A stretch of DNA of 46,189 nt from a plasmid. Both the position numbers and the translations under genes were made by a program. The notes under the pieces were generated by a model that ran no database searches, was not told the origin of the DNA, and saw only the letters and a list, made by a program, of their open reading frames with translations. Shown here one piece after another: positions 9,297 through 34,928 of the stretch (position 1 is its first letter; each line of letters opens with the position of its first letter). Location: the sequence record NZ_CP048628.1; one strand, 5' to 3'.

Positions 9297-10389
9297 ATGG
9301 CACTTCCAAAGAAAATACAAAATCAAAGAAAAGAATTAGTTGACAAAGTAGTAAAAGACATTGAAAGTGGAAAACCATTCTTTTGGGATAGTGGACACTA
9401 TGGTAAACAGCCTAGAAATCTTTTAAAAGCAATAAAAGGTGAGGATAACTATTATAAAGGTATAAATGCCATGCAACTTACAATAGCAGCTAGAGTTAAT
9501 GGATTTAAAGATAGTAGATGGGCTACATTTAAGCAGGCAGAAATGGCAGGAGGACATGTTAAAAAGGGTGCTAAAGGTACACATATAGAATATTGGCAAT
9601 ATACACAAGATGTAATGGAATTAAATCCAAAAACAGGTAAAAAAGAACCTGTTTTTGAGATAAATCCAGATACTGGAGAAAGAAAGAAAAAACAAATTAT
9701 GTTAGAGCATCCAATCGTTAAATCTTACGTCGTTTTTAATGGCGACCAGATAGAAGGCATTGAAAAAGAACAGTTACCTGTTATTAAACAAGAAGATAAA
9801 AATAAAAACATGGAAAACATGATTAAAAACAGTGAAGCTAAAATCTTTTTTTGATGAACTAAGTCAAAATTATTATTCACCTAATAAAGATGAAATACAT
9901 GTTGTCCCTAAAGAAAAGTTTAAGACTTTAGATAATTTTTACGCAACGGTAGCCCACGAGATAGCACATTCTACAGGTGCTAAAGGACGTCTTAATCGTG
10001 AAACTTTAAAAAATAATGATGGTTTTGGAAATGAAATTTATGCAAAGGAAGAACTTCGAGCAGAACTTACATCAATGTTTCTTCAACAACGTTATAATGT
10101 TAATTTTGATGAAAAGCATTATGAAAATCATGCAGCCTATCTGCAAAATTGGGCACAGGTGATAAAAAACGACCCGAACGAGATTTACAGGGCGGCCGCT
10201 GACGCCGAAAAAGCAATGAGTTATATAGAAACACGTATGATAAAGAAAAACCTTACAAAAGAGAAATCTGTGCAAAAAGAAACGGCACTTGAAAATAAGC
10301 CAGTTCAAAAGAAAATTATCAAGCAGAAAATCACAATGAAATTTGATACTCAAAAATCTAAATCAAAGGAAAGAACGCTTACAAGATAA
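9297..10389 (+). pseudogene. ardC: ArdC-like antirestriction protein (ssDNA-binding N-domain plus HExxH metalloprotease domain), split by a +1 frameshift in a T7 tract at 9846..9852
   Basis: ORF 9297..9854 (N-domain) and ORF 9832..10389 (VAHEIAHSTG = HExxH) are in adjacent frames. Deleting one T of the seven restores a single frame (..AKIFFDELSQN..). The C-terminus is KKIIKQKITMKFDTQKSKSKERTLTR. Confidence 0.6.
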
Positions 10390-10392
10390 AGA

Positions 10393-10421
10393 AAAAGGCA
10401 GTGAATAATCACTGCCTTTTT
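10393..10421. terminator. bidirectional terminator between convergent genes (aaaaaggcagtg..cactgccttttt)
   Basis: 12-bp inverted repeat with A- and T-tracts on the two sides. Confidence 0.6.
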
Positions 10422-10423
10422 CT

Positions 10424-11014
10424 TTATCTGCTCATTTCCTGGTTATTATTATCTCTGTTAGGAAACTTCATAATAATTTTCTGTTTACGTGGTTTGGATT
10501 TTTGTATATTTTGCATAGCAATTTCTTTTTCCTGTTCTAGTTGTCGTATAAGCTCCTGTTTAATTTTCTTTACATTAGGAAATAATATATTGATACGATT
10601 ATTTAAGGAATAAATTTTGTTTACTTTTCTTAATAAATCTCTTTCTAATTTATTATCTATTATAACTTTTTTACCAGAAACAACATACTGTTCTTCTATG
10701 TATTTTTCTGTAATAGGACACATATTTTGTATGAGAAACACTCTTTTTTCTCCTAAAACTTTTCCAAAATGTAAGGTATCGCAAGATTTAAATTTTTTAA
10801 TTTTATGATTATAGATATCAGTATATTTTTTTACTTTAGAAGAAATAGGTATTAACCAGTAAATATTAGGATTAACTCTATCTTTTAAAGCATAAAAACA
10901 CGGTCTACCATGTTTTTCTCCGTTTATTGTTTCATGGTTTTGCATAAGACCTTTATCTGGAAAATCTTGAAAGTATTTATTTTTTATAAAATAAAAAGTT
11001 TTTTCTTGAAGCAT
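10424..11014 (-). CDS. ToxN/AbiQ-family endoribonuclease-like toxin with an extra C-terminal tail ..KQKIIMKFPNRDNNNQEMSR
   Basis: Likely start is ATG 11014 with RBS aagga (the track extends to 11050 using a GTG). FYFIKNKYFQDF and ..IYWLIPISSKVKK.. parallel ToxN FYTISSKYIEYLKEF and ..KYLAPLTSPKK.. as I recall them. It is preceded on its strand by a promoter, tandem repeats and a terminator hairpin. Confidence 0.5.
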   Translation of the reverse strand: MLQEKTFYFIKNKYFQDFPDKGLMQNHETINGEKHGRPCFYALKDRVNPNIYWLIPISSKVKKYTDIYNHKIKKFKSCDTLHFGKVLGEKRVFLIQNMCPITEKYIEEQYVVSGKKVIIDNKLERDLLRKVNKIYSLNNRINILFPNVKKIKQELIRQLEQEKEIAMQNIQKSKPRKQKIIMKFPNRDNNNQEMSR

Positions 11015-11036
11015 AATTTTTTCCTTTATACAAATA

Positions 11037-11064
11037 AAAGCCTTATCCACAGGATAAGGCTTTT
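11037..11064 (-). terminator. hairpin (aaagccttatcc..ggataaggcttt) between the repeat array and the ToxN-like start
   Basis: Perfect 12-bp inverted repeat; on the minus strand it is followed by uauuugu. Confidence 0.5.
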
Positions 11065-11070
11065 ATAACA

Positions 11071-11171
11071 ATGTGAACCCCGACGTTTTATATCCCGCAT
11101 ATCGGGTAGCGGTAGACATGTGAACCCCGACGTTTTATATCCCGCGTATCGGGTAGCGGTAGACATGTGAA
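11071..11171 (-). repeat. tandem 47-bp repeats, 2.15 copies (array A), transcribed toward the ToxN-like gene; ToxI/AntiQ-like antitoxin RNA candidate
   Basis: Units 11071..11117 and 11118..11164 differ at one base; a partial unit follows at 11165..11171. A promoter TTTACA-16-TATAGT lies on the minus strand at about 11178..11206. Confidence 0.5.
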
Positions 11172-11196: not shown

Positions 11197-11343
11197 GTAA
11201 AGAAAGGTAAAGCTTTTTCTATAAACTCCACTCATTATACATCTTCTTTTCAGCAAGTTTTGTTTTATTTGTGGTCTGTTCGTTTTCTTGCCATTTTGCC
11301 CTAGATTGTTGCATGTTATCATTAACAAGATTGTCGGCAATCT
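11197..11343 (-). repeat. about 147-bp duplicated copy of the relaxase 3' end (roughly 90% identical to 11583..11729), encoding a 51-aa remnant peptide
   Basis: Remnant ORF MNTSKIADNLVNDNMQQSRAKWQENEQTTNKTKLAEKKMYNEWSL, compared with the relaxase C-terminus ..KISKIADNLVNDNMQQFRAKWQENEQTTDKTKLAEKKMYNEWSL. Confidence 0.6.
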
Positions 11344-11410
11344 TTGAAGTATTCATTTTTAAGAAAATAGAATGTACAATCTTTCATAATATACCTTTAA
11401 ATAAACTAAA

Positions 11411-11434
11411 AGCTCTATCTAAAAAGATAGAGCT
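11411..11434 (-). terminator. hairpin agctctatc..gatagagct downstream (minus sense) of repeat array B
   Basis: 9-bp perfect inverted repeat with a 6-nt loop. Confidence 0.4.
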
Positions 11435-11444
11435 ATATTTGTAT

Positions 11445-11537
11445 CCTGACCATTTAATACCCCGTCTATCAGGAAAACGGAAATATGTCGTGCCCTGACC
11501 ATTTATACTCCGTCTATCAGGAAAACGGAAATATTTG
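11445..11537 (-). repeat. tandem 48-49-bp repeats, 1.9 copies (array B), immediately downstream of the relaxase stop; orphan ToxI-like array candidate
   Basis: cctgaccatttaataccccgtctatcaggaaaacggaaatatgtcgtgc (11445..11493), repeated with three changes at 11494 onward. Confidence 0.45.
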
Positions 11538-11585
11538 TTTGTTTATTGCTATAATATAACACTTATAAAGAAAAGTAAAGTGTTT

Positions 11586-13568
11586 TTATAAACTCCACTC
11601 ATTATACATCTTCTTTTCAGCAAGTTTTGTTTTATCTGTAGTCTGCTCGTTTTCTTGCCATTTTGCCCTAAATTGTTGCATATTGTCATTAACAAGATTG
11701 TCGGCAATTTTAGAAATTTTGTCTGTAACAGACTGGTTACGTTTTTTATAAGCTTCCTGTATAATTGGGTGTTCATTTAATTTCTTTTGTAATATATTAG
11801 AATGTTCTTTGTGTGCATATAAAAAAGCAAATTCATTGCTTTTTTGAATAGAAATTTTAATGTCATTTGTTTTTAAATAATATACTGGTACTTTTCCTTG
11901 TATAATATCATCACCTATTTTTACTGCTTTATTGTTATTTTTATCAATTATAAAGTAGGTATTATTGTTATTTATAATAAATGGTAAATCTTTTAATGAA
12001 GTTATTCCATTTATTTTGTTTTTATGCTCTAATTTTGGGGAAATTTTATCGCTAAAGATTATAGTGTCTTTATCTTCTTTAGATAGTTTATCTAAAGCTG
12101 TTTTATATTTTTGTACTTGAAGCATATTGTATTTGTAACGTGCATATAAAATCTTATTTTCAGATATAGCATCTTCGTTTTCTTTTTTTAGTTGATTTAA
12201 AATAGAAGTGTATTTTTCATGGTTAGTGGTTAATTCAATTTTATAGGCACTTATACGTTTACCTATTTTTGTGCGACTTGAACTAAGCTCTTGGCTTTTT
12301 CTGCTTAAAGAGCTTAGTTCTTTTATTTTATCTGCTTTTCCATATAAAGTAGGCAAAATACTATTTATTTGTTTTAATTCTTTGGAGATTTTATCATATT
12401 GTTTTATATCTTTACTGTAATTATCATTAAACATCTTGTCTTTAGCTAATAATTCAAGGCGTTGTTCATTTAAAATATTTTTTTTGGCAGCTTTAAAAAC
12501 AGCTAAGTTTTCAGCTGCTTTTTTTTCAAATTCATTTATTTTTGTGTCTAAATGTTTGCATATATCACCAGTAGTTATTATCATAGCTTCTTGTTTAATT
12601 TCTTCGGCTTCAGCTATGGCTTTTTTAGTTTGCTGTTCTTTTTTAAGACGTAAACGTTCTTGTTGTATTTGTTTAGCTACTTGTCTTATTACTACATCAT
12701 TAGCGAATAGTTGTATTTTTTGTTCTTGAATAGATAAATTTTCTTCTTTTTCTTGTTCTATAAATCCATCTGCGGCTTCATCAGCTTTTGCATCTGTTTC
12801 ATCAATTTTTTCCATGATATGTTCTAAGATTGCAGGATTTTTATAAGCATTTCCTAGATGTGGTGCAGGTGTACGATTTAAAAGTTCGGCTTCTTCTATT
12901 TTTCCTTGTTCTATAAGTTCTTGTCTTTGAGCTTTTAAACTCTTTTCTGATATAGAAACATTAAAGCCTTTTTCCTGGAATTTATCATTTACTATGTCGG
13001 CGAAAAGCTTTCTAATATCAATAGTAGCTGTTTTTGTTGAGAAATCTCTTGATGAACGGTAACCTTTTGTAGGCTCACCAAGTTTATTTTCAGCATAATT
13101 TTTAAAATACATATCAGGTTCAAGTGGTCTATTTTTTTCAATTATTTTTTCATTAAACATCAAATGACAATGTATATTTCTATGTTCCTTTGAAAAAGTG
13201 GCTGTTTTATCATGAATAGCATAGGAATATACATGATTATCTTTTATTCCAGTTTCTTTTAAGAATTTTTCAACACATTTAATATTTTCTTCAAGGGATA
13301 ACTCTTCTTGAAGGGCAAATTTAAATTCTCTATAAGCTCTACCATTAGGTTTATTTCTGTGTTCTTCCGCTTTTTGCCAGAAATCACGTGGATTATCAGC
13401 CCATTCAGGTAAATTCCCAAAAGAAGTTATTTTTAAATCTTCTTGTCTATTTTTCATATTGGTATAATCGCCTTCACGGGAGATATAGTCATAATGGATA
13501 GCTGTATTAAGTTTCGTACCATCTTTTCTTTTGCCATGTGGTGTGTTTTCAAAATAGTAATGTGCCAT
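11586..13568 (-). CDS. mobA: MobA/MobL-family (MOBQ-type) conjugative relaxase with a long coiled-coil C-terminal region
   Basis: N-terminal Tyr motif (..LNTAIHYDYISREGDY..) and histidine triad (HDKTATFSKEHRNIHCHLMF). Confidence 0.75.
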   Translation of the reverse strand: MAHYYFENTPHGKRKDGTKLNTAIHYDYISREGDYTNMKNRQEDLKITSFGNLPEWADNPRDFWQKAEEHRNKPNGRAYREFKFALQEELSLEENIKCVEKFLKETGIKDNHVYSYAIHDKTATFSKEHRNIHCHLMFNEKIIEKNRPLEPDMYFKNYAENKLGEPTKGYRSSRDFSTKTATIDIRKLFADIVNDKFQEKGFNVSISEKSLKAQRQELIEQGKIEEAELLNRTPAPHLGNAYKNPAILEHIMEKIDETDAKADEAADGFIEQEKEENLSIQEQKIQLFANDVVIRQVAKQIQQERLRLKKEQQTKKAIAEAEEIKQEAMIITTGDICKHLDTKINEFEKKAAENLAVFKAAKKNILNEQRLELLAKDKMFNDNYSKDIKQYDKISKELKQINSILPTLYGKADKIKELSSLSRKSQELSSSRTKIGKRISAYKIELTTNHEKYTSILNQLKKENEDAISENKILYARYKYNMLQVQKYKTALDKLSKEDKDTIIFSDKISPKLEHKNKINGITSLKDLPFIINNNNTYFIIDKNNNKAVKIGDDIIQGKVPVYYLKTNDIKISIQKSNEFAFLYAHKEHSNILQKKLNEHPIIQEAYKKRNQSVTDKISKIADNLVNDNMQQFRAKWQENEQTTDKTKLAEKKMYNEWSL

Positions 13569-13945: not shown

Positions 13946-14668
13946 TTGAACGGGGAACAGAAATTTATTCCTAGTGGAGAACCTACAGATGTTTTTGATA
14001 AAAAAAAAGGAGGTCGTTTTAAAAGCTATAGTACCTTTCAATCGGATTTATATAATTTAGCTTTAGATAAAGATGTGGCTAAAAAAAGGAATTTAATCTA
14101 TTTAATATTAATAATTATTTGTGTTATAGCTACGATTTTTGTTACAACTACAGCCAGCTATAAAACATACGTTGTTAGGGTTAATGAGGCTACTGGAGAA
14201 GTTCAAACAGGTGGCGAGTTAAAAGTAACCAATTATACACCACAAGAATCGGAAATAAGGCATTTTTTGGCAGAATTTATTTTAGATACTAGAACTATTC
14301 CACTTGACCCTATTCAATATAAAAACGGGTTAGAAAAGTCAAAATATTTCATGACTTCTGAAGCATCGCAAAAATTTAATGCTTTACTAATAAAAGATGA
14401 CCCAGTTAAGAAATTAGGACGTTCAACTATACAGCCAGAAATTCGCTCAGTACAGCTTCAACCAGGTTCTAAGAGTACTTATCAGGTGCGTTGGAGCGAA
14501 GAAGAATATTCTTTAGCTGGTGGAGCTACAGGTAAAAAGACATATTATGTAGGACTTTTTAATGTTGGTGTAGATAATAGAGGACAAAAAGAAGCGGATT
14601 TTTTAATTAATCCTTTGGGAATAAAGATTAAGGATATGAATATAAGCCGTGAAGAAGGGCAGGGATAA
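13946..14668 (+). CDS. VirB8-like T4SS inner-membrane component (bitopic, NTF2-like periplasmic part)
   Basis: TTG start with RBS taaggaggtg; single transmembrane segment LIYLILIIICVIATIFVTTTASY; first gene of the T4SS operon, immediately before the VirB9 and VirB10 homologues. Confidence 0.5.
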   Translation: MNGEQKFIPSGEPTDVFDKKKGGRFKSYSTFQSDLYNLALDKDVAKKRNLIYLILIIICVIATIFVTTTASYKTYVVRVNEATGEVQTGGELKVTNYTPQESEIRHFLAEFILDTRTIPLDPIQYKNGLEKSKYFMTSEASQKFNALLIKDDPVKKLGRSTIQPEIRSVQLQPGSKSTYQVRWSEEEYSLAGGATGKKTYYVGLFNVGVDNRGQKEADFLINPLGIKIKDMNISREEGQG

Positions 14669-14671
14669 TAC

Positions 14672-15490
14672 ATGAATACGAAAAACAAGATATTAGCGAT
14701 GACACTTGCCTTGAATTTTTGTATATTTCCGGCTTCAGCACAGCAAGCTGTTTATAACGTCAACGACGGTAAGCAAATAGCGACCGAGCTTCAGTACGAT
14801 TACTACGCAAATAGTCTATACTGTATAAACGTTAAAGTTGGTCATGTAACGGATATTATTCTGCATGAAGGGGAAAATTTTATTGGTGCTATAGGTGGAG
14901 ATACTAAACAATGGATGATTGATAAAGCTAGAGTAGGTAATGTTACACATATTTATATAAAGCCATTAGTAAATAGTGCTAGAACAGACATAATAATAAA
15001 TACAGATAAACGTTCATATCACTTTTTGATTACGGCTACAGATTATTATAATCCTATAGTCAGTTTTAATTTTCCAGAAGAAATAGTTGCACAAAAGAAA
15101 ACAGAAATAAAAAAACTTAATAAACCAACAAAAGAAGAAAAAGAATTTATGACAATTTTCACTGAAAGTAAAAACGGCGAAGTTGTTTTAAAAGATATGA
15201 ATTATAAATATAAAATTAAAGCAAATAATAAAAGATTAGCTGAAGATATATGTCCTAAGAAAGTTTTTGATGATGGAGTGCGTACTTATATTGAGATGCC
15301 AAAGAATAGATATGACCTGCCAGTTCTTTATAATGTGGACGATATGGACGATGAAAAATTGACACTTGTAAATTATAGAATTAAAGGCAAATACTATATT
15401 GCAGATAGAGTATTTAATCACGCAAGACTTCAATATACATCAAAGTTATATGTGGATATATACCCAGTAGAAGAAGGTGATAAGAAATGA
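14672..15490 (+). CDS. virB9: VirB9/TrbG-like T4SS outer-membrane core protein
   Basis: Signal peptide ..FPASAQQ; C-terminal VFDDGVRTYIEMP (the fDDG.rTy motif). Confidence 0.7.
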   Translation: MNTKNKILAMTLALNFCIFPASAQQAVYNVNDGKQIATELQYDYYANSLYCINVKVGHVTDIILHEGENFIGAIGGDTKQWMIDKARVGNVTHIYIKPLVNSARTDIIINTDKRSYHFLITATDYYNPIVSFNFPEEIVAQKKTEIKKLNKPTKEEKEFMTIFTESKNGEVVLKDMNYKYKIKANNKRLAEDICPKKVFDDGVRTYIEMPKNRYDLPVLYNVDDMDDEKLTLVNYRIKGKYYIADRVFNHARLQYTSKLYVDIYPVEEGDKK

Positions 15491-16797
15491 GTTTTAAAGA
15501 GAAAATAGAGAACCTTTTTCATAGAAATAAAAAGAAATCTGATGATGAGCTTATAAATGAGGAACTTTCTGAAGGTGATATGGGGGAAATAAATTTTGAA
15601 GATGTTTCGACTGAAGATGAGGTTAAAACATTACAAAAAAAGAAAATAATGATTGTTGGTGGTGTTATTGCTGTTGTTGCTATAGCGGCAGTTGTAAGTA
15701 ATGCAATGACAAATAAAAAAGTACAACAACAAAATAGACCTCTTAGTTCTGCTGGTATAGCAGTTAGTCCTGCACAAGCATTGCCAGATAAATATTCAGA
15801 TATAGCAAAATATAATAAGGATAGTGAAGAAGAAAAAAAATTAAGAAAAGATGAAATAAGAGGAAAATCTGATACTAAAACTGCAACTAATGGTGTGGTT
15901 ACAAAACAACAGGTAAATTCTAGTGGTAATAGTGGAACAGGGGCAACAACAAAAAATGATGCGAAGGTTGTTTATGTTAAACCTAGTAATAATTCTGTAA
16001 GTAACATTAACTCTTTTGATAAAGAACAACAAAAAGTTGAAGCTGAAGCTGAAGCAAAAAGAGAAGCCATGATTAGTAGTTCATTAGCATTTGCAATAGC
16101 AAGTGATATAGCAAATGGAAAACCTATTAAGGAAGTAGTAAGCGATAACATAAATGCTTCTACTGTTTCTACTGAATATGATAATTATAATGATGATAAT
16201 TTTGTAAATTATGGTATAAGTTATACATTAAATGCAGGAACTGTTATTCCAGCAACGCTTTTAACTGGAATAACATCTGATGTTCCATGTGGTGATGTTG
16301 TAGCACAAATAAGACAAGATGTTTATGATAGTTTAACTGGTACACATCTTTTAATACCGCAAGGAAGCCGTTTAATTGGTACTTCTGGTCAGGCTGGAAG
16401 TCGTGGTAATAAAAGAATAGGTGTTATATTTACTAGAATAATTTTACCAAGTGGAGTATCTATTATTTTGCCAGACCAGAAAGCCATAGATGGTGTGGGA
16501 TATCCTGGTCTTGAAGATGAATATACAGAACATAAAGGAGCAGCCTATGGTAGTGCTTTTATGGCTGCACTTTTAGGAGCTGCGGCACAATCAGCAACAG
16601 GAAATACATCAGGTGATGATGAAAGAAGTCCTGGACAAGAGGCAGTGAGTGGAGCTGTTGCAGAAATTCTCCGCACGGGAGAAAAATTTGTTGACCGTGA
16701 ACTTGAAAAACAGCCAACAATAACTATTAATCCTGGTTTTCAGTTTAGTGTGTTTATAAATCAGGATTTGAATTTAGGTGAGTACAATGATTTTTAA
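15487..16797 (+). CDS. virB10: VirB10/TrbI-like T4SS core protein
   Basis: N-terminal transmembrane segment IMIVGGVIAVVAIAAVV and a C-terminal barrel domain (GTVIPATLLTGITSD..LLIPQGSRLIGTSGQ..VIFTRIILPSGVSIIL). Confidence 0.8.
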   Translation: MSFKEKIENLFHRNKKKSDDELINEELSEGDMGEINFEDVSTEDEVKTLQKKKIMIVGGVIAVVAIAAVVSNAMTNKKVQQQNRPLSSAGIAVSPAQALPDKYSDIAKYNKDSEEEKKLRKDEIRGKSDTKTATNGVVTKQQVNSSGNSGTGATTKNDAKVVYVKPSNNSVSNINSFDKEQQKVEAEAEAKREAMISSSLAFAIASDIANGKPIKEVVSDNINASTVSTEYDNYNDDNFVNYGISYTLNAGTVIPATLLTGITSDVPCGDVVAQIRQDVYDSLTGTHLLIPQGSRLIGTSGQAGSRGNKRIGVIFTRIILPSGVSIILPDQKAIDGVGYPGLEDEYTEHKGAAYGSAFMAALLGAAAQSATGNTSGDDERSPGQEAVSGAVAEILRTGEKFVDRELEKQPTITINPGFQFSVFINQDLNLGEYNDF

Positions 16798-19120
16798 ATT
16801 GTTTATTGCCTTTATTCCGTTATTTGCTGGTTTCTGGATAGCAACACAAAAATTGGCTGAACTTGTAGAGTATAGTTTTCTGCTAGGGGAGCCGTTCATG
16901 GTATCTAAAGGAATACCGTATTACTTGCCACACAATTATTTCATCTGGTTTATGAATTTCCACGAGTACATTCCACAGCTTTTTGCTAAAACATACCCAT
17001 ATATTTTTGTGAGTTTTGTTATATCTTTTGTGTTGTTGTTTTTACTTAGGAAAAAACCGGAACTTACCTCTCACGGCAGTGCAAAATTCGGCAGCTACAA
17101 CGACCTTTTGAAAATGGATTTAATATCCGCAAACGGCGTTGTAATTGGACAATATGATGGCAAATTACTTAGACTGTTTACTGCTTTTTTACGTGCTTTT
17201 GAAACTATAAAAAAGGAAAAAGAAGCTTATGCTGAAATGGCATTTGATGATAAGGTAACTCGAAAAAAAGAAGTATATTCGCATAAGTTAGAAAGATTAT
17301 ATGAGAAGTTAAATGATAGTAATGATGAAAAAGAAATAGAAAAGCTGAAGTATTTAGAAAAAGTTTTAAAAGAAAAGATTGATGCTCCAGTTAAATATGA
17401 TGCTAAAAAAGAAGATAAATTTACCGTTTATCCATATATTTTTTTATATAAAAAGCTTTCTAAATTTTATGCTGGTTGTAAACACTTTTATCTTAGAGAT
17501 AATTCTAATAAGCATTTAGCAGTTATAGCACCCACTAGAAGTGGTAAAGGTGTCGGGCTTATAATTCCGACGCTTCTTGGTAGCTGGACAAGTTCAGTAA
17601 TTGTAAATGACATAAAAAGTGAAAACTGGGGAATAACAGCAGGATATAGAAAACGTATGGGGCAAACTGTTATAAAGTTTGAACCAACAGCTGAAGATGG
17701 TTCATCAGCTCGTTGGAATCCGCTCGATGAAATCAAAATTGGTACAGCAAGCGAAGTTTCCATGAGCCAAAATCTAGGCATGATAATTGCCGACTACGAA
17801 GGGAAAGGCAAGATGGACCACTGGGGACAAAATGCCGCAAACGTTATCTCGCTTGTTATACTGCATATGAAATACGCTCACTTTTCTGACCCGGAAAATT
17901 ATCCTAATGAGCCTAATTTATATACAGTTGCAGCATTTTTGAAAGCTAATATGTTGCCTATATTTGATGATGATGGTAAACCTGTAATGATATATGTTGA
18001 TGATGATGGTAATGTTTATGATGAACCGACAAGTGGAACTATTCAACAGCAAAAAGTAGATGTTAAAGGGTTTTTAGATACCCTTAAAAATTTACAAAAC
18101 TTTGAGCATGTGCCTGATAATGGCATAGATATAGTAGAGTGGGATACAAAAGAACTTAAATATGTAAAAAAACATTTTACGCCAGAAGATTTAAAAAATC
18201 TTTATCCAGACGCTACTTCTTTAAATTATATGCCTAATACGCATCCAATTATTTATCAAGGATTTTTAGAGATATTATCTAAAGCAGAACAGGAATGTGC
18301 AAGTATAATATCTACTGCTAATACTGCTTTAAAAGAGTATTTAGACCCTGTACTTGCTCAAAATACGGCTGTAAGCGATTTTTGCATTGACGATATGATG
18401 AATTATAAAAAACCTGTATCGCTTTATTTAGTTACGCCACCATCGGATATTTTAAGACTTGCTCCTATTTTTAGATTATTTTTTGAAATGATGGTTCGTC
18501 ATCATGCAAAACGTATAGGTGTTTATAAAAAAGGGAGAGCAAAAAATGTATATAAGCACAAATGTCTATTCTTAATGGATGAATTTTCTTCTCTTGGGAA
18601 TTTGCAGTCTTTCGCAGCTACATTATCGTATATTGCAGGATATGGAATGAAAGTTTTCCTTATAAATCAGGGGCTTCCGCAAATTAACGGGATATATGGA
18701 AAAGACAATCAAATATTAATGAATTGTCATTTGCAGATATTTTATGCTCCGAATGACAATGATACTGGAAAATATGCTGAATCATTGTTAGGTAATAAAA
18801 CAATAATGGTTCAGTCGACGTCTGACTGTGGACTTTTAACAAAAAAGACTTATTCAAAATCGGCGACAGGTAGAGCTTTAATGACTGCTGATGAAATAAA
18901 GCGTTTAGAAGATAAAGAGATAATTGTTGCAAGTGGTAATCCACCAGTAATGACTGAAAAAGTTAAATATTATGAAAGTAATTATTTTTTAAATAAGCTA
19001 TTAGATGCTCCAATAGTAAGTGATGTAATAAGAAATAATCCTTATCCAAAGAGAGATAAATTAATTAGGGTGAGTAAAATTAATACAAATATAGAGTTTG
19101 ATTTTACTTATAAGGAGTGA
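16778..19120 (+). CDS. virD4: VirD4/TraG-type coupling protein (T4CP)
   Basis: N-terminal transmembrane helices, Walker A APTRSGKGVGLIIPTLL and Walker B LFLMDEFSSLG. Confidence 0.8.
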   Translation: MSTMIFKLFIAFIPLFAGFWIATQKLAELVEYSFLLGEPFMVSKGIPYYLPHNYFIWFMNFHEYIPQLFAKTYPYIFVSFVISFVLLFLLRKKPELTSHGSAKFGSYNDLLKMDLISANGVVIGQYDGKLLRLFTAFLRAFETIKKEKEAYAEMAFDDKVTRKKEVYSHKLERLYEKLNDSNDEKEIEKLKYLEKVLKEKIDAPVKYDAKKEDKFTVYPYIFLYKKLSKFYAGCKHFYLRDNSNKHLAVIAPTRSGKGVGLIIPTLLGSWTSSVIVNDIKSENWGITAGYRKRMGQTVIKFEPTAEDGSSARWNPLDEIKIGTASEVSMSQNLGMIIADYEGKGKMDHWGQNAANVISLVILHMKYAHFSDPENYPNEPNLYTVAAFLKANMLPIFDDDGKPVMIYVDDDGNVYDEPTSGTIQQQKVDVKGFLDTLKNLQNFEHVPDNGIDIVEWDTKELKYVKKHFTPEDLKNLYPDATSLNYMPNTHPIIYQGFLEILSKAEQECASIISTANTALKEYLDPVLAQNTAVSDFCIDDMMNYKKPVSLYLVTPPSDILRLAPIFRLFFEMMVRHHAKRIGVYKKGRAKNVYKHKCLFLMDEFSSLGNLQSFAATLSYIAGYGMKVFLINQGLPQINGIYGKDNQILMNCHLQIFYAPNDNDTGKYAESLLGNKTIMVQSTSDCGLLTKKTYSKSATGRALMTADEIKRLEDKEIIVASGNPPVMTEKVKYYESNYFLNKLLDAPIVSDVIRNNPYPKRDKLIRVSKINTNIEFDFTYKE

Positions 19121-19129
19121 ATAAACTAT

Positions 19130-19537
19130 ATGAGTATACAGAAATTGACGAAGATGGAACGCAAATATCGCATTTTGCAAGAAGAACAAAATGCAATTTT
19201 AAAAAGAATGCAAGAAGAAAAAAGAAATGCAAAAAAAAGGTTAGAAAGTGAGAGGTATAACTATATTATACAAGTGGTTAAAAGACTTAAATTGCCTATA
19301 GATAATCCAACAATTATTATAGGAGCTTTAGTTGAAGCTAAAAAGATTATAACTGAAAATAATACTGCCAAAATAAATGAATATATTGAAAAATATAGTT
19401 TATTTATTAAGGAAACAGAACAAATAGACATTGGGGATATTGAAAAGAATAGTAAAAATGAGAAGAATGATATATCTTCATCATCTTTAGAAGCTGAAGA
19501 TAAAGAAGAATATATAAAGGCTCTTGAAGGTGCTTAA
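19130..19537 (+). CDS. coiled-coil hypothetical protein inside the T4SS operon
   Basis: 135 aa, rich in charged residues with heptad-like repeats. Confidence 0.4.
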   Translation: MSIQKLTKMERKYRILQEEQNAILKRMQEEKRNAKKRLESERYNYIIQVVKRLKLPIDNPTIIIGALVEAKKIITENNTAKINEYIEKYSLFIKETEQIDIGDIEKNSKNEKNDISSSSLEAEDKEEYIKALEGA

Positions 19538-20525: not shown

Positions 20526-20941
20526 AAAGATGGACAGTAAAAAAAAATGAAACCATTTTAGCTATATTAAAAAGAAATAAGCAAGAATTGCTGATGTTAA
20601 GTGCTATTTTCTTTGTTATGGCAGTTGTAATTGCTACTAATCATGGAACAGCACTTGCTCAAAGTGTTGGTTTTAACGGTGATACTGTAGGAGACATTGA
20701 ATGGCCATGGATGAAGTTTTTTAATTCTTTAGCAGAACAATTTACAGGACCACTCCCTATGGTACTTGGTATTTTAGGACTTGCTGGTTGTGCTATTGCC
20801 ATGTTTACTGGTAATGCTGGTGGTGGAACAACAAAATTTATTGTTTTGATTTTTGTTGTTTCTACTTGCCTTTTTGCTCCAAGTTTTATTTCTTACGTTT
20901 CTGAATCAGCCGGAGGTCTTACTATATTGGGGGCTATGTAA
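20522..20941 (+). CDS. VirB2/TrbC-like pilin precursor
   Basis: Long leader followed by two hydrophobic segments; located directly before the VirB3 and VirB4 homologues. Confidence 0.5.
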   Translation: MKRWTVKKNETILAILKRNKQELLMLSAIFFVMAVVIATNHGTALAQSVGFNGDTVGDIEWPWMKFFNSLAEQFTGPLPMVLGILGLAGCAIAMFTGNAGGGTTKFIVLIFVVSTCLFAPSFISYVSESAGGLTILGAM

Positions 20942-21204: not shown

Positions 21205-21212
21205 GTGATAAA

Positions 21213-23690: not shown

Positions 23691-23703
23691 GGAGTGAAAT
23701 ACC

Positions 23704-24483: not shown

Positions 24484-24487
24484 TATT

Positions 24488-25633: not shown

Positions 25634-25634
25634 T

Positions 25635-27449
25635 ATGCCTATGAAGAAAATAATTTTTATATGTTTAATAATTATTTTAATACCATTTAAGGTATTAGCT
25701 TCACCACCTATTATTGGTGGTGAAGTAACTTCTCCATATGGCCCTCGTGATGCAGGAGGAAGAGCTAGTACATTTCATAAGGGTATAGATGTGTATGTTC
25801 CTTCTGGCACTCCTATAGTTGCTCCAGCAAATGGTACAGTAAATCACGGAGCGGGCGGCGGTTATATTTATTGGACGGATATAACGCTGGAAGACGGCAG
25901 TTACTGGATGTTTGGCGACTGCTCATCAGACACGCTTTTATGCCAGACAGGATATGTTACGGAAGGAACAATAATAGGGTATACCGGCGGCGATGCCTAC
26001 GATGGGCCGCTTGGATATTCCACCGGGCCGCATGTGCATATAGAATACGGGCCGCTTGGTGAGTTCGGCAGCCGTGTTGACCCCGTACCGTATCTTGAAG
26101 CGCTTGGAATGGATTTAAGCGGAAATACCATGCCTTCAGGCGGCGGTGGTCCTGCTGTAATGGGACATGATAATGTAACGCTTCCATGGGGCGTTGAAAG
26201 TATGTATGAACTTGGAGAAAATATACAAGATATAATGCAACAGGTTGTTGAAGCTGCTGGTCGTGGCTTTGATTTTTTACAAGATGCTTGCTTTGCATTA
26301 TTACTTGTTCTATGTATTTTAGATTTAACGCTTCCAATGATGACAAGTGGTATGACTATTTCAATGCAGTTTGCCATAACTAAGGTAATGAAATATGGCT
26401 TTTTGATGTTTGTAATGCTAAACTGGCAAACAATTATAAATGACTTTTTTTTGTCGTTTGTAACGTCTGTTTCTACTACATTTGCTAATAACCCGGATAT
26501 AGGAAATGATGTATCTCAACCGCAAATGATATTACAAAAAGCAATTTTTATGGTAACACCAGCATTAAATAAAATAGCTAGTTTTGGCAGTTGGGATTTC
26601 TATACTAATTTATCAACGATTATTCCAATTTATCTTGCGACATTTATAACAATAGGCGTATTTTTTGTTCTTGCCTGTTATATAATGCTCGTTTACATTG
26701 AATTTTATGTAGTAGCAGCTCTTAGTATTTGTACGTTTCCTTTTTCAGCTTTTGGTTTTACAAAATTTATTGCTGAAGGAAGTTTAGGACATATTGTAAG
26801 TAACACGATAAAGTTAACTATTATTTCAATTATGGTTGGATTTTGTGTTGTATGTATTCGTGATGCCGAGCCTGGTGATATATTTACAGTGCAGACGCCA
26901 TCGGAGCAAGTAACAGGTACAGGAACGATAACAGGACCACCTGATTTAGTAGCATTGGCTACAGAAAAAGCTCAAAAGTATGGTATTCCAGTATCACTGT
27001 TTTTGGCACAAATACAACTTGAAAGTAGCTGGAACCCTAATGCGGTATCTGGGGCTGGTGCACAAGGATTAGGACAATTAATGCCTGGAACAGCAGCAGG
27101 ACTTGGCTGTTCCGATCCATTTAATCCAGAACAGAATTTAGAAGCCGCTGCTAAATACATGAAACAATTACATGATATGTATGGTGATTGGAATTATGCA
27201 TTAGCAGCTTATAATGGAGGACCTGGAAATGTAACAGCTGGTGAACCACTTCCAGGTTGGGCACAAGAATATATAGACCTTGTAAATGGTAATTTATCTG
27301 GTTCTTATACCGTAAATAATGGTATAAATTCAGAAGCCATGATTAAATTTATATTGATGTGCCTTTCTTTGATTGGACTTGCTTTTTTAACAGCAAGAAT
27401 ACCAACATCTTTGTTAAAAATGTTAGGTGGTAAATATGAATTGTCTTAA
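25635..27449 (+). CDS. tripartite T4SS protein: M23 metallopeptidase domain, VirB6-like polytopic domain and VirB1-like lytic transglycosylase (SLT) domain
   Basis: Signal peptide MPMKKIIFICLIIILIPFKVLAS. M23 motifs HKGIDVYVPSGTPIVAPANGTV and GPHVHIEY. Central transmembrane helices. SLT motifs QIQLESSWNPNAVSGAGAQGLGQLMP and AAYNGGPGNV. Track ORF 25593..27449. Confidence 0.7.
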   Translation: MPMKKIIFICLIIILIPFKVLASPPIIGGEVTSPYGPRDAGGRASTFHKGIDVYVPSGTPIVAPANGTVNHGAGGGYIYWTDITLEDGSYWMFGDCSSDTLLCQTGYVTEGTIIGYTGGDAYDGPLGYSTGPHVHIEYGPLGEFGSRVDPVPYLEALGMDLSGNTMPSGGGGPAVMGHDNVTLPWGVESMYELGENIQDIMQQVVEAAGRGFDFLQDACFALLLVLCILDLTLPMMTSGMTISMQFAITKVMKYGFLMFVMLNWQTIINDFFLSFVTSVSTTFANNPDIGNDVSQPQMILQKAIFMVTPALNKIASFGSWDFYTNLSTIIPIYLATFITIGVFFVLACYIMLVYIEFYVVAALSICTFPFSAFGFTKFIAEGSLGHIVSNTIKLTIISIMVGFCVVCIRDAEPGDIFTVQTPSEQVTGTGTITGPPDLVALATEKAQKYGIPVSLFLAQIQLESSWNPNAVSGAGAQGLGQLMPGTAAGLGCSDPFNPEQNLEAAAKYMKQLHDMYGDWNYALAAYNGGPGNVTAGEPLPGWAQEYIDLVNGNLSGSYTVNNGINSEAMIKFILMCLSLIGLAFLTARIPTSLLKMLGGKYELS

Positions 27450-27966
27450 AAAATACAATGGTATAGTCGTGCATGCACGACTATACTCATTGAAATTTTG
27501 TAAAATTATTCTATTTTTTATTATTTTTATAACAATATTGTATCTATGTATGGGAACAATATTTTATAAAAATATATCACCATCTGCACCTCGTGGAATA
27601 TATATGATAGCACCCAATCAGAATTTAGATTATGGAGATTTTGTTGTTGTTAAACTTCCTGTAGATGTTCCTATATTAAATGTACAAAAAGGATATCCCA
27701 TGATAAAAAAAGTACAGGGTTTGCCAGGAGATGTTTATAGAGTAGGTGAGGATGCTGTAGAAATTCATGGTCGAAAATATAAGATATACCATATTGACGG
27801 TCTGCCGCAGAAAAATACTATCGGAGAATACACAGTACCAAAAGGACAGATTTTATTTTTGAATGACCCTGATATATCTTTTGATTCGCGGTATCTTGGA
27901 ACAATTTCCACTAAAAACATTGAAAAGAAAGTGATACTTGTTTGTTCATTTGATGAAAAGGATTGA
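27427..27966 (+). CDS. traF: TraF-like conjugative signal peptidase (S26 family; pilin maturation)
   Basis: N-terminal transmembrane segment and NISPSAPRGIYMI (S.S.P.G.Y catalytic-Ser motif); the end of a T4SS operon is the expected position for a pilin-maturation peptidase. Confidence 0.6.
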   Translation: MVNMNCLKKYNGIVVHARLYSLKFCKIILFFIIFITILYLCMGTIFYKNISPSAPRGIYMIAPNQNLDYGDFVVVKLPVDVPILNVQKGYPMIKKVQGLPGDVYRVGEDAVEIHGRKYKIYHIDGLPQKNTIGEYTVPKGQILFLNDPDISFDSRYLGTISTKNIEKKVILVCSFDEKD

Positions 27967-32472: not shown

Positions 32473-32634
32473 ATGACTAATAATAATCTTAAAAAAAATG
32501 TTATTTCTGCAATAAAAAGTTGTGAGTTAGAAGGCTTTGTTTATACAAAAGAGGAAAAACAAGTTTTTAATAGAATTGCTTCAGGAGAAATAACAGTAGA
32601 TGAAGCAAGAAAGATTTTTAAAAGGATGTCATAA
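32473..32634 (+). CDS. VbhA/FicA-like small antitoxin candidate (53 aa) carrying the inhibitory motif SxxxEG
   Basis: MTNNNLKKNVISAIKSCELEGFVYTKEEKQVFNRIASGEITVDEARKIFKRMS; its stop overlaps the Fic start (taATGg); not in the ORF track because it is under 60 aa. Confidence 0.55.
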   Translation: MTNNNLKKNVISAIKSCELEGFVYTKEEKQVFNRIASGEITVDEARKIFKRMS

Positions 32635-33272
32635 TGGATGAGTATGTATTAAAGAATAAATTAGGTTTAAAAGATACACAAACCTTAAATAAATATGAAC
32701 GACGATTAAGTGCATTAAGAATTATTTCTCTTAAAGAAAAATCTTTTAAGAAATTTGATTTTTCAACCTTAAAAAGAATGCACAAGGAAATTTTTCAAGA
32801 CATTTATCAATGGGCTGGAACAACAAGAAATGTTAATATTTCCAAGGGAAAAACACTTTTTTGTCCAGTTGAAAATATAAATGTTTATGCTGATACAATT
32901 TTTAAAAAGTTAGAAAAAGAAAATTATTTAAAAGGGCTTTCTCAAGATAAGTTTTGCAAAAAAGCAGCTGAATTATTTGGAGATATAAATGCTTTACATC
33001 CTTTTAGAGAAGGTAATGGTCGTACTCAAAGAGAGTTTATTTATCATTTAGCTAAAAATTCTGGTTATGAATTGGACTTAAATCAATTAGATAAAACTAA
33101 ATATATGACGGCCTCTATTGAATCAATACTGACAAGTAATGAGAAAATGGAAAAGTTGATGAAATCTATAATAAAGCCGTTAGCTAAAGAAAAAGTCAAA
33201 ATCCGAAAACAGAAGATAGTGATGAAGTTTCCGGACAAGGATAAAAGTAATAATCGCAATATGGAACGCTGA
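32634..33272 (+). CDS. Fic-domain protein (AMPylation-type toxin) with C-terminal tail ..KQKIVMKFPDKDKSNNRNMER
   Basis: Canonical Fic motif HPFREGNGRTQREF (HPFx[DE]GNGRxxR). Confidence 0.8.
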   Translation: MDEYVLKNKLGLKDTQTLNKYERRLSALRIISLKEKSFKKFDFSTLKRMHKEIFQDIYQWAGTTRNVNISKGKTLFCPVENINVYADTIFKKLEKENYLKGLSQDKFCKKAAELFGDINALHPFREGNGRTQREFIYHLAKNSGYELDLNQLDKTKYMTASIESILTSNEKMEKLMKSIIKPLAKEKVKIRKQKIVMKFPDKDKSNNRNMER

Positions 33273-33347
33273 ATATATACAATATATAGTATATTTTCTT
33301 TCGACCATAAGATATAAAAACTATATTTAGTATATGGAGAATACAAA

Positions 33348-33539
33348 ATGATTAGTAATGTAGAACAAAAGCGGAGACGTGAAATGGTTGAATATAGTAT
33401 AGCTACCTGTGAATTAGAAGGATGTATTATAAGTGATGAATACAGAAGATTATCAGAAAAATATATTAAAGGTGAAATGACACTAGAAGATTTAAGTAAG
33501 GAAGTTCGGAAAAATCTTCCCTCAAATAAAAGCAGGTGA
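33348..33539 (+). CDS. second VbhA/FicA-like small protein (TCELEG motif)
   Basis: MISNVEQKRRREMVEYSIATCELEGCIISDEYRRLSEKYIKGEMTLEDL.. contains [ST]xxxE[GN]. Confidence 0.45.
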   Translation: MISNVEQKRRREMVEYSIATCELEGCIISDEYRRLSEKYIKGEMTLEDLSKEVRKNLPSNKSR

Positions 33540-33543
33540 TATA

Positions 33544-33954
33544 TTGAAATACTTATCTGGTATATTTGCATTGAATTTAATGTGTGATTTAGATACATTC
33601 GGCGACTGGCATACATCAGCGATTGATTGGAAGAATAAGATAAATTTTTGGAATAGTAGTCATAGTATATGGGGAGATTACGGCATAGAAAAAAACAGGA
33701 CTATTCCGGAAAACAAAGGAAAATTTAATGTTGCTAATCATATTAGAGCACTACTTGACTTAATCAGCATAGGAGATTTTCCTACAGCACAAGGAATGCG
33801 AGATAATTTTATCTGCAATGATAAATATACGCCAGAAATTTTTTCTAAAGTCAGTATGTTGAAGAACAATAAAAACTGGCCGGAAATAGATAAATTTATG
33901 GGTAAAGAATATATGATGCAATGGGTGAAATATAAAAAAGAGGTTAGTTTATGA
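33544..33954 (+). CDS. hypothetical protein upstream of the HipA-like kinase; HipS-like role possible
   Basis: 136 aa; overlaps the kinase gene start (ATGA). Confidence 0.35.
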   Translation: MKYLSGIFALNLMCDLDTFGDWHTSAIDWKNKINFWNSSHSIWGDYGIEKNRTIPENKGKFNVANHIRALLDLISIGDFPTAQGMRDNFICNDKYTPEIFSKVSMLKNNKNWPEIDKFMGKEYMMQWVKYKKEVSL

Positions 33955-34928
33955 TAATAGATTTTACTGATATAGCAAAAAATAATCCTAGTTTCAGAGC
34001 TTACGGAGGAGCTAACGGCATAAAAAAAGGAATACTATTTCATGGAAAACCGTATATGCTGAAGATAGAACATCGTGGAAAGAAGAAAAATAAAGATTAT
34101 AAGCATAGCGTATTATCAGAATATATTTCTTCAAAAATATATTCCATGTTGGATATTCCCACTCAAGAAGTTGTTCTCGGCAAGATTTATGATAATGGAA
34201 AAGAAAAATTATGCGTAGCTTGTAAAGATTTCAAAGAAAAAGGCGAATATCTGTATGAATTTTTAAATATAAAAAACTCCGTCCTTACGGAAAATTCCTC
34301 CAACGGCTCAGGTACGGAACTAGCGGAAATTTTAGAAGCCATAGATAAGCAGAACTTTTGTCCTGCAAGTGAAGTAAAAGAAAGATTTTGGGAAATGTTT
34401 GTCGTCGATACTTACTTAGGAAACTTTGACAGACATAACGGGAATTGGGGCTTTTTAGTTAATGAAAATACAGGGATTAAACACCTGGCGCCTGTTTTTG
34501 ATTGCGGGTCTTGCTTATATCCTGCACCTACGGATGAACAGCTACAAGTATTTTTAAACGACCCCAAAGAAATGGAAAAAAGAGTATATGTTTTTCCAAA
34601 CTCAATAATAGAAGAAAACGGTAAAAAAATAAATTACCATGAGTTCTTACAATCCACTTTAAATGAAGATTGTTTGAAAGCCGTAAGAAAAATGATACTC
34701 AAAATAGAAGCAAAATCTAATGATATAAAAGACTTTATTAATCACATTGAAGTATTATCTCCGGTTAGAAAGAAATTTTATACACAGATTTTAAGAATGC
34801 GTAGAGAACGGATATTGCAACCGGCATTAGAGCGTGCAAATAAATTGATGAAGAAGTCGTATAAGCAAAAAATAGTGATGAAGTTTCCGGACAAAGATAA
34901 AAGTAATAATCGCGTTATGAACAGATAA
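33951..34928 (+). CDS. HipA/HipT-like Ser/Thr kinase toxin with C-terminal tail ..KQKIVMKFPDKDKSNNRVMNR
   Basis: Catalytic region ERFWEMFVVDTYLGNFDRHNGNWGFLVNENTGIKHLAPVFDCGS parallels the HipA pattern ..vFN.lignTDDHlKNfS...g.w.LsPaYD.. Confidence 0.6.
   Translation: MIIDFTDIAKNNPSFRAYGGANGIKKGILFHGKPYMLKIEHRGKKKNKDYKHSVLSEYISSKIYSMLDIPTQEVVLGKIYDNGKEKLCVACKDFKEKGEYLYEFLNIKNSVLTENSSNGSGTELAEILEAIDKQNFCPASEVKERFWEMFVVDTYLGNFDRHNGNWGFLVNENTGIKHLAPVFDCGSCLYPAPTDEQLQVFLNDPKEMEKRVYVFPNSIIEENGKKINYHEFLQSTLNEDCLKAVRKMILKIEAKSNDIKDFINHIEVLSPVRKKFYTQILRMRRERILQPALERANKLMKKSYKQKIVMKFPDKDKSNNRVMNR

Follow-up and report, generated by a model that had tools for sequence, protein, structure and literature searches.

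Why should unrelated proteins, encoded by one plasmid, end with the same short peptide? The question is raised by a plasmid from Megamonas funiformis JCM 14723T (CP048628; sequence record NZ_CP048628.1), of which the authors wrote that it "may represent a conjugative plasmid" (PMC7163012). The whole stretch of DNA analysed, which we call the window, is 46,189 bases long and has a GC content of 29.4%. Pfam matches indicate a complete VirB-type transfer system, together with a MobA/MobL relaxase, a topoisomerase, SSB, ArdA, ArdC, and ParA. An initial annotation had noted a common C-terminal tail on an ArdC-like protein, a "ToxN-like" toxin, a Fic protein, and a HipA-like kinase. It proposed that the tail directs these proteins into the plasmid's own type IV secretion system (T4SS). 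Here, we describe the tail, the selection that acts on it, and its variation between plasmid lineages. On balance, we favour a role as a portable signal that recruits proteins to this secretion system.

The shared tail

Six-frame translation identified the sequence KQKIxMKF, 20–22 residues before the stop codon, in exactly four open reading frames (ORFs):

9832–10389, plus strand: C-terminal half of ArdC, with tail KKIIKQKITMKFDTQKSKSKERTLTR at 10309–10386
11014–10424, minus strand: CptN, the "ToxN-like" ORF, with tail KSKPRKQKIIMKFPNRDNNNQEMSR at 10427–10501
32634–33272, plus strand: Fic, with tail KIRKQKIVMKFPDKDKSNNRNMER at 33198–33269
33951–34928, plus strand: HipA-like kinase, with tail KSYKQKIVMKFPDKDKSNNRVMNR at 34854–34925

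When all ORF ends were compared, no other ORF of the plasmid had a tail-like end. The back-translated pattern, AARCARAARATHNNNATGAARTTY, matched the window four times and had no match in any of 100 dinucleotide-preserving shuffles. We conclude that the four unrelated proteins do share a tail. The initial description of this tail as short and basic was also correct. It spans approximately 22–25 residues and the net charge, for the last 25, is between +5 and +8. These are among the most basic C-termini encoded by the plasmid. Hydrophobic residues in the core follow the pattern I-x-M-x-F, and the terminal pattern is R-x-[MI]-x-R.

The tail lies beyond the catalytic domains. Family profiles stop just before it in Fic (residue 183 of 212), the HipA-like kinase (290 of 325), and AbiEii, an additional carrier described below (219 of 249). 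For CptN, the profile stops at residue 155 of 196. In AlphaFold models, Fic residues 187–212 have a predicted local distance difference test (pLDDT) score below 50 and no secondary structure. The pLDDT of CptN is 94–98 in the domain, and drops through 73 and 59 to 48 across its final 30 residues. Hence, these models predict that the tail is disordered. Together, the data support a modular C-terminal add-on to unrelated catalytic folds. Note that, as first suggested, this is not a BID domain. The Fic protein has approximately 30 residues beyond the FIC domain, predicted to be disordered, and no Pfam domain other than Fic. Furthermore, the NCBIfam model for VbhT, a Fic toxin with a BID domain, aligned only across positions 17–201 of 419, far below the cut-off.

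Translocation signals for conjugative T4SSs have been described as C-terminal motifs rich in positive or hydrophobic residues (PMC11288057). The tail is extreme C-terminal and unstructured, judged from motif position and AlphaFold pLDDT, and has net positive charge and hydrophobic residues in the last 20–30 positions. Two other readings of the peptide were rejected. The segment QKIVMKF might be taken for a beta-clamp or PIP-box-like motif. However, its spacing is unlike the bacterial QL[SD]LF pentapeptide, the glutamine is dropped in a sister lineage (lineage B, below), and the carriers have no common link to replication. Processing of the tail by the plasmid's TraF-like S26 peptidase is unsupported, since the tailed proteins are cytoplasmic.

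Is the conserved feature the DNA or the peptide? The Fic and HipA tail sequences are 82% identical over 73 nucleotides, and this homology stops at the stop codon. Other pairs are 73–78% identical. The HipA tail DNA is closer to that of AbiEii and a second Fic gene (Fic2), with 93–96% identity over 51–121 nucleotides. The same core is specified by different codons in CptN and ArdC, which are at another locus. Across 12 distinct tail copies, each of 21 codons, the proportion of synonymous differences (pS) is 0.63 and that of nonsynonymous differences (pN) is 0.11. For the core, pN is approximately 0.05. The earlier impression that tail DNA (73–82% identical) has diverged more than the peptide was thus borne out. 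We conclude that purifying selection acts on the tail peptide.

Distribution and covariation

A profile search listed 3 proteins among 5.8 billion, and 13 among 1.84 billion representatives. Note that the exhaustive profile took in the HipA C-terminal helix, via extra P0003 columns used as profile positions, and 5 of the 13 matches are HipA helices with no tail. A degenerate DNA pattern located 21 true loci in gut metagenomes and one in species-representative genomes. The species-representative scan, with a 40-bit pattern, gave 47 matches, 46 of them due to chance. A "Fusobacterium" contig, at first promising, proved to be one such chance match. The degenerate pattern did not find the tail in viral contigs (IMG/VR). 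Similarly, tblastn of the 27-residue tail against PLSDB gave no match, to which the low-complexity filter possibly contributed. The plasmid family itself is not in PLSDB. A megablast search with 25 kb gave no match, and a distant DNA search returned only short matches, of 60–80% identity, to trbB/trbE of Campylobacter, Fusobacterium, and Ilyobacter plasmids. The coupling protein has at most 38% identity to anything in that database.

In 24 of 25 copies from the metagenome loci, the distance from the start of the motif to the stop is 21 residues. Three more carriers were found: the AbiEii nucleotidyltransferase toxin, the distant second Fic (P0005), and P0013, a protein of 310 residues. Hence, the lineage of the window (lineage A) has seven carrier families: Fic1, Fic2, the HipA-like kinase, AbiEii, CptN, ArdC, and P0013. 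The last of these is encoded at 10001–10933 of locus L003, ends with …PRKQKIVMKFSYKDKSNNRNMSR, and takes the first cargo-slot position in some plasmids. P0013, searched in Pfam and NCBIfam, has no family match, and neither do orf161 and orf135.

All 20 lineage-A loci with visible flanks share the same conjugative plasmid backbone. Tailed genes occupy a variable slot in this backbone, between TopA-orf161 and PcfJ-orf69-SSB-orf104-ArdA. The following slot contents were seen:

VbhA-Fic2 alone
Fic1 and the HipA-like kinase
P0013, Fic1, and the HipA-like kinase
a Fic2 remnant and AbiEii

Comparison of L001 and L060 with the window shows AbiEii and HipA-like bodies exchanged at the same position. 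The upstream AbiEi gene is constant, and so are the tail and the 60–120 nucleotides downstream. Such exchange of toxin bodies, before a constant tail, is terminal reassortment. Relatives with no tail also occur. Because HipA-like homologues in two other lineages end without it, we conclude that the HipA-like kinase gained its tail by fusion. A 74% identical VbhA-Fic module, found among housekeeping genes, stops exactly where the tail would start. Canonical CptN, of 155–165 residues, has no tail. The distribution supports confinement of the tail to a VirB/TraG-type conjugative plasmid family and fragments derived from it. Homologues on related plasmids had been singled out beforehand as a check, and these do carry the tail.

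A different end was seen among Fic homologues of approximately 290–300 residues (P0166, P0192, P0163, and P0230). In P0166, a C-terminus that matches RepB_primase_C takes the place of the short tail. The Pfam match (PF22448) scores 26.1 bits, exactly at the 26.1-bit cut-off, and none was obtained for the others tested. Parts of primases and relaxases are known carriers of T4SS signals. The RepB_primase_C-like end may represent another signal module that has been joined to FicT toxins.

Elsewhere, CptN and Fic homologues have other basic C-terminal extensions, nearly always with arginine at the end. Contigs encoding these homologues revealed a sister lineage (lineage B), with approximately 42% GC and the same gene order. 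Its backbone proteins are 50–77% identical to those of the window family. The tails of the two lineages compare as follows, with core stretches of lineage B, and the residues at the end, given last:

Fic1: lineage A KIRKQKIVMKFPDKDKSNNRNMER; lineage B KVKRKLTLDIKPASGRSQGRSR; core stretch KVKRKLTLDIKP...GRSR
Fic2: lineage A KVRKQKIVMKFPDKDKSNNRNIGR; lineage B KKRKLTLDVKPTTDRSRDRSR; core stretch KKRKLTLDVKP...DRSR
AbiEii: lineage A KPRKQKIVMEFPDKDKSNNRGMSR; lineage B QKRKLKLDIKPKDNSKGFTR; core stretch QKRKLKLDIKP...FTR
CptN: lineage A KSKPRKQKIIMKFPNRDNNNQEMSR; lineage B TKRKLVLEPKPNTDDRYRGR; core stretch TKRKLVLEPKP...RGR
ArdC: lineage A KKIIKQKITMKFDTQKSKSKERTLTR; lineage B VKRKLTLKVDNKNSKSKAKSKSMSLHL; core stretch VKRKLTLKVDNKNSKSK...

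In parallel, in five orthologous families, KQKIxMKF is replaced by KRKLxL(D/E/K)(I/V/P). An ArdC-specific segment, D-x-x-x-SKSK, is kept in both lineages. Hence, the ArdC tail was inherited vertically while its core switched with that of the other cargo. Among lineage B tails, the codons for R, L, and L vary while the KRKLxL peptide is kept, and this speaks against recent gene conversion. In a third lineage (lineage C; L084 and L088, from one sample), the tail of CptN is YKQKLNLDV...GMIR and that of Fic is SKWKLSLNT...ELSR. A parallel allele switch across five families points to a single co-evolving binding partner, specific to the element. We regard this covariation as the strongest indirect evidence, from sequence comparison, for a putative shared and element-specific receptor. 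Since the peptide is disordered, basic, extreme C-terminal, attached to unrelated cargo, under selection, restricted to one family, and subject to allele switching, we infer that such a partner exists.

Carrier proteins, their partners, and transfer genes

The carriers, and the genes beside them, are at two places in the window:

9297–10389, plus strand: ArdC anti-restriction protein (ArdcN domain 9297–9854, zincin metallopeptidase domain 9832–10389)
10424–11014, minus strand: CptN, type III (CptIN) toxin (toxin domain residues 6–155, helix 148–173, then disordered tail)
11071–11171, minus strand: predicted CptI-like antitoxin RNA array (47 nucleotides × 2.1 tandem repeats, Tandem Repeats Finder score 195, 98% matches)
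11216–11534, minus strand: decayed second CptIN cassette (direct repeats and translation)
32473–32634, plus strand: VbhA antitoxin, 53 residues (Pfam VbhA, 5e-07; SCELEG)
32634–33272, plus strand: VbhT-like FicT toxin (Pfam Fic, 6e-18; FIC motif HPFREGNGRTQR)
33348–33539, plus strand: second VbhA-like gene (Pfam VbhA, 4e-08)
33544–33954, plus strand: AbiEi-like protein of 135 residues (PADLOC AbiEi, 7e-59)
33951–34928, plus strand: HipA-like kinase (Pfam HipA_C, 1.2e-09; 38.5 bits against a cut-off of 30.5)

ArdC matches the Pfam families ArdcN (7e-23) and MPTase-PolyVal (7.5e-32), and HEIAH, of the HExxH metallopeptidase type, is present. The gene consists of two overlapping ORFs, with a frameshift at a run of seven T bases (9846–9852). 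Deleting one T gives a single ORF (...EAKIFFDELSQ...). The orthologue in locus L078 is intact, encodes 365 residues, and has the lineage B tail allele. The frameshift could reflect an error in sequencing, phase variation at this site, or a pseudogene.

The "ToxN-like" label must be replaced. While this ORF has no Pfam or PADLOC match, it scores 184.8 bits, against a cut-off of 90, with the NCBIfam CptIN equivalog NF047359 (residues 6–155). It also matches PDB entry 4RMO (E-value 1.5e-21). Hence, NCBIfam and PDB identify the CptIN-family toxin CptN. As in CptIN systems, a repeat array and a terminator-like hairpin are upstream of the toxin gene. The hairpin (AAGCCTTATCC...GGATAAGGCTT) is between the array and cptN, and the repeats are preceded by a promoter-like stretch. 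The repeats have no Rfam family match. The array is predicted, from its sequence and position, to be the antitoxin RNA. Compared with known CptIN systems (PDB 4RMO; NF047359), the likeness covers the whole length of the toxin domain and extends to the tandem repeats and hairpin upstream. Unlike canonical CptN, of 155–165 residues, the protein here has a 40-residue extension, made up of the helix and the tail. Many plasmid-borne CptN homologues have other basic extensions that end with arginine.

The decayed cassette is downstream of the relaxase gene. It comprises two 48-nucleotide repeats (11454–11534) and the truncated start of a cptN gene, MKDCTFYFLKNEYFKD (11387–11340), corresponding to the first 16 codons. 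The truncated cptN is joined to a 138-nucleotide, 92% identical, duplicate of the relaxase 3' end (11216–11353, compared with 11583–11720). CptIN cassettes seem to be gained and lost by recombination, with the relaxase end as homology arm.

For Fic, the best PDB match is VbhT (3ZCB/3SHG; E-value 2.7e-39, residues 5–177). The FIC motif HxFx(D/E)GNGRxxR in the toxin, and the inhibitory motif (S/T)xxxE(G/N), here SCELEG, in the small upstream antitoxin, place the pair with FicTA (VbhTA) systems. The HipA-like kinase has the catalytic loop FDRHNGNWG, which fits the D-x-H-x-x-N loop of the HipA family, and matches PADLOC PDC-M03A (4e-31, residues 48–290). No HipB-like partner was found for this kinase; the gene directly upstream encodes the AbiEi-like protein. 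Each toxin had been thought to have its own antitoxin-like partner. This holds for Fic, with VbhA, and for CptN, with the CptI-like array, but not for the HipA-like kinase. The idea of a private antitoxin for the kinase fails, since, in other slot copies, the upstream AbiEi-like protein is the partner of AbiEii. The same 135-residue protein (33544–33954 in the window) is paired either with AbiEii or with the HipA-like kinase in L001, L080, L085, L088, and L089. In L088, the AbiEi-like gene comes before both. The AbiEi-like protein may serve two unrelated toxin folds as a common antitoxin or regulator.

The transfer genes, and the conserved flank of the slot, are listed next:

11586–13568, minus strand: MobA/MobL-family relaxase (Pfam MobA_MobL, 1.9e-24)
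13946–27966, plus strand: T4SS and mating-pair-formation genes (Pfam), with VirB8, VirB9, and VirB10 listed first
16778–19120, plus strand: TraG/VirD4 coupling protein (Pfam)
19130–19537, plus strand: small acidic ORF, between the coupling-protein gene and virB11
following the acidic ORF, plus strand: VirB11/TrbB, VirB2, VirB3, VirB4, VirB5, and VirB6 (Pfam)
last in the block, plus strand: VirB6-M23-SLT fusion and TraF-like S26 peptidase (Pfam)
35689–38784, minus strand: PcfJ-like protein of 549 residues, orf69, SSB, orf104, and ArdA (Pfam for SSB and ArdA; synteny in 20 loci)

The order of T4SS genes is identical in L078, L084, L085, and L088. Locus L070 spans the end region of the window and continues into the start region, as a circle would predict. 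The small acidic ORF has no family match. It has a very acidic C-terminus, and its position is kept in three lineages, with 37–44% identity. We regard it as a candidate adaptor that could bind basic tails. The relaxase ends with ...MYNEWSL (11586–11610) and has no tail. This extreme C-terminus is kept in three plasmid lineages, as MYNEWSL, MYSGWSL (L078), and MYNNWSL (L084), while the relaxases are only approximately 47% identical overall. The conserved end may be a recognition element of the relaxase itself, distinct from the cargo tail.

The ArdA-to-PcfJ block, conserved beside the cargo slot, resembles a plasmid leading region in its set of genes. An inverted-repeat search found two large hairpins, at 38831–38960 and 39000–39074, upstream of the ardA-orf104-ssb-orf69-pcfJ operon. 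The arms are 55 nucleotides with 78% complementarity, and 26 nucleotides with 96%. These hairpins resemble the single-strand promoters of plasmid leading regions, and the toxin slot adjoins this block. A 47-nucleotide direct repeat, 94% identical, occurs at 34937–34983 and 35517–35563, between the HipA-like and PcfJ-like genes, and brackets approximately 580 bp. Related plasmids have a single copy and a shorter spacer, and the repeat pair suggests an insertion or cassette boundary. Further along, a gene for TnpB (IS605 OrfB / Cas12f-like; 40679–41797) is between a ParA/HicB-like pair and a Dam methylase. A near-identical plasmid fragment (L070) lacks this TnpB gene. Finally, at 41943–44049, a gene for a D12-class adenine methyltransferase overlaps one for a 423-residue protein of DUF6996, DUF6997, and DUF7226. 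The two may form a restriction or defence pair.

A candidate recruitment signal

What might the tail do? The explanation that we favour, and think somewhat probable, is that it recruits accessory proteins to the plasmid's own VirB/TraG T4SS, by which they would be translocated. The tail would be a portable C-terminal peptide of approximately 22–25 residues, with three parts: a basic run, the strand-like K-Q-K-I-x-M-K-F, and a polar, basic, disordered stretch that ends with arginine. In the donor, each toxin would be kept inactive by its own antitoxin (VbhA, CptI RNA, or the AbiEi-like protein). During mating, the exposed tail would dock on the coupling protein, either directly or via a bound adaptor, and the tailed protein would pass through the channel into the recipient, with the DNA or independently. 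The TraG/VirD4 coupling protein, or an adaptor, is the most economical candidate for the partner, and the most likely one. Once delivered, ArdC would protect incoming DNA. Recipients in which the plasmid is not established, and the antitoxins are not expressed, would be poisoned by the toxins. This might amount to immediate addiction, to retaliation against restriction, or simply to antagonism.

A broader proposal is possible, and we hold it more tentatively. Conjugative plasmids of gut Negativicutes may run a "polymorphic effector" system, in which the tail is read by TraG/VirD4 or an adaptor, the alleles are specific to each lineage, and the cargo consists of swappable toxins and ArdC. Mating would then inject toxins, together with an anti-restriction protein, before genes are expressed. 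The arsenal would comprise FicT, the HipA-like kinase, AbiEii, and CptN, plus ArdC, with the tail alleles KQKIxMKF, KRKLxL, and others.

Recruitment to the T4SS has precedent. The initial annotation stated that VbhT is carried by a conjugative T4SS via a C-terminal BID signal, and this has been shown experimentally (PMC5675462). The same study (Harms et al. 2017) predicts more toxin–antitoxin (TA) toxins with short, positively charged signals. For ArdC, the initial statement went too far. Transfer, taken to be known, has only been proposed in the literature, and export of R388 ArdC was neither shown nor excluded (PMC7213743).

Several points weigh against recruitment to the T4SS. In the R388 study, ArdC expression mattered in the recipient, not in the donor, and donor expression did not complement (PMC7213743). 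Hence, export was not required there. The relaxase, which is the one certain T4SS substrate, has no tail. Nor is the tail universal: the HipA-like kinase of lineage B (L080) lacks it, and the AbiEii and HipA-like proteins of lineage C have no clear tail. The 20 flanked lineage-A loci are on a T4SS backbone, but some tailed genes are in chromosomal islands that have no T4SS in the vicinity (L006, L068, L080, and L089). These chromosomal loci resemble recent fragments of the plasmid elements, and L006 keeps an adjoining piece of the relaxase gene. The short T4SS signals known so far are degenerate, and a motif so sharply conserved is unusual. It could equally be a mark for binding by a chaperone, regulator, or protease. 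Within each lineage, recombination could have spread one tail and so account for part of the covariation, and the partner need not be the coupling protein. Note that transfer, coupling-protein binding, and effects on recipients are all predictions from sequence.

The tail might instead be a docking peptide for a partner outside secretion (a proteolysis adaptor, a sequestering or chaperone protein, or a regulator), with the carriers acting inside the carrying cell. Any short linear binding motif could be conserved, disordered, and under purifying selection, and covariation between lineages needs a co-evolving partner, not the coupling protein specifically. Moreover, each of Fic, the HipA-like kinase, AbiEii, and CptN has a match among anti-phage defence models or families, and tailed genes survive in the T4SS-less chromosomal islands. 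We nevertheless consider docking unlikely. No candidate for such a partner is known. ArdC, not being a toxin, has no need of sequestration, and each toxin already has its own antitoxin. Known bacterial C-terminal degrons are non-polar and do not end with arginine, unlike the tail. If the tail regulated toxins inside the cell, a stable chromosomal Fic module with no tail would be unexpected, and all lineage-A loci with visible flanks are on a conjugative backbone. Localisation to the inner membrane, nucleoid, or single-stranded DNA, perhaps with the carrier riding on the transferred strand, is less probable again. The charge of +5 to +8 and the short hydrophobic core would suit this role, and ArdC is a single-stranded DNA-binding protein (Pfam ArdcN; PMC7213743). 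However, electrostatic targeting needs no fixed sequence, and the KQKIxMKF core (pN of approximately 0.05) is replaced, as a block, by KRKLxL. The hydrophobic stretch is also too short for membrane insertion. Furthermore, the known targets of these toxin families share no location: FicT proteins act on topoisomerases, HipA and AbiEii on tRNA synthetases or tRNA, and CptN on RNA.

Could the tail be a functionless recombination scar, acting as a 3' homology arm for cassette swaps and translated by accident? Toxin bodies are indeed exchanged between constant flanks (the AbiEi gene on one side, the tail and 60–120 nucleotides downstream on the other), and the HipA and AbiEii/Fic2 tail DNAs are 93–96% identical over 51–121 nucleotides. 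Yet the peptide is kept with synonymous sites almost saturated (pS 0.63, pN 0.11), and Fic/HipA homology ends at the stop codon. CptN and ArdC, at the other locus, have the same peptide with different codons, and lineage B keeps KRKLxL with four different leucine codons. The distance from motif to C-terminus is also fixed. Hence, codon analysis largely excludes a scar, which is the least probable of these explanations.

How would a recruitment signal of this type compare with known systems? The VirB/D4 signal of Agrobacterium (VirF, VirE2, and VirE3) is described as a positively charged, arginine-rich C-terminal consensus (Vergunst et al., cited in PMC11288057). Like the tail, it is short, C-terminal, unstructured, and net positive, with arginine near the end. 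It can be fused to unrelated proteins, and the tail likewise occurs on unrelated proteins. However, the Agrobacterium signal is a loose charge pattern, whereas the tail has a strict KQKIxMKF core, approximately 20 residues from the end, and comes in discrete, lineage-specific alleles. VbhT/VbhA, of the Bartonella schoenbuchensis plasmid pVbh (PMC5675462), is similar in having a FicT domain, a VbhA-type antitoxin directly upstream, an extra C-terminal module after the FIC domain, and a VirB-type conjugative plasmid. In VbhT, the module is a folded BID domain of approximately 100 residues and a charged tail. Here, it is approximately 25 disordered residues, common to six other protein families, and the host is a Negativicute gut commensal. 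While the Vbh T4SS secretes VbhT (PMC5675462), the tailed Fic is known from its sequence alone.

In Xanthomonas and Stenotrophomonas, the C-terminal module XVIPCD is recognised by VirD4 and found on many toxins, with adjacent immunity genes, that are used against other bacteria (PMC6536674, PMC6759196). One C-terminal module on many toxin domains is the likeness. XVIPCD is, however, a domain of approximately 120 residues, from a dedicated, chromosomal killing T4SS, rather than a peptide of approximately 25 residues on a conjugative plasmid. Also, the toxins here are classic TA and abortive-infection types, and the set includes an anti-restriction protein. The tail cannot itself be XVIPCD, given its length of approximately 25 residues and no domain match beyond the catalytic domains. 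Campylobacter fetus Fic TA proteins, encoded beside T4SS genes, share a charged C-terminal KEKE motif, proposed to be a translocation signal (Sprenger et al. 2017, PMC5651007). The KEKE motif differs in sequence, is limited to Fic paralogues, and comes with no cross-family distribution or covariation evidence. Our literature searches found no description of the tail. On sequence grounds, a conjugative plasmid whose TA-derived cargo has a C-terminal T4SS signal would be of a known kind. The strict core and discrete alleles appear to be new.

Protein-export signals of conjugative T4SSs are poorly defined and usually degenerate. Hence, a crisp, portable peptide, with natural alleles that follow plasmid lineage, would be a direct handle on substrate recognition by coupling proteins. 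If the tail does recruit its carriers to the T4SS, protein export by a conjugative T4SS would for the first time have a discrete consensus signal, and the single case of VbhT would be generalised to many TA families. The TA and abortive-infection toxins of such plasmids would then be injected weapons, or factors for instant addiction. Such a role has been predicted, and shown for one protein only (Harms et al. 2017, PMC5675462). The tail would also be a ready-made tag for delivery of proteins between gut bacteria. Megamonas is common in the human gut, and the plasmid family recurs, with differing toxin loads, in many gut metagenomes. It may shape both strain competition and plasmid spread in the gut.

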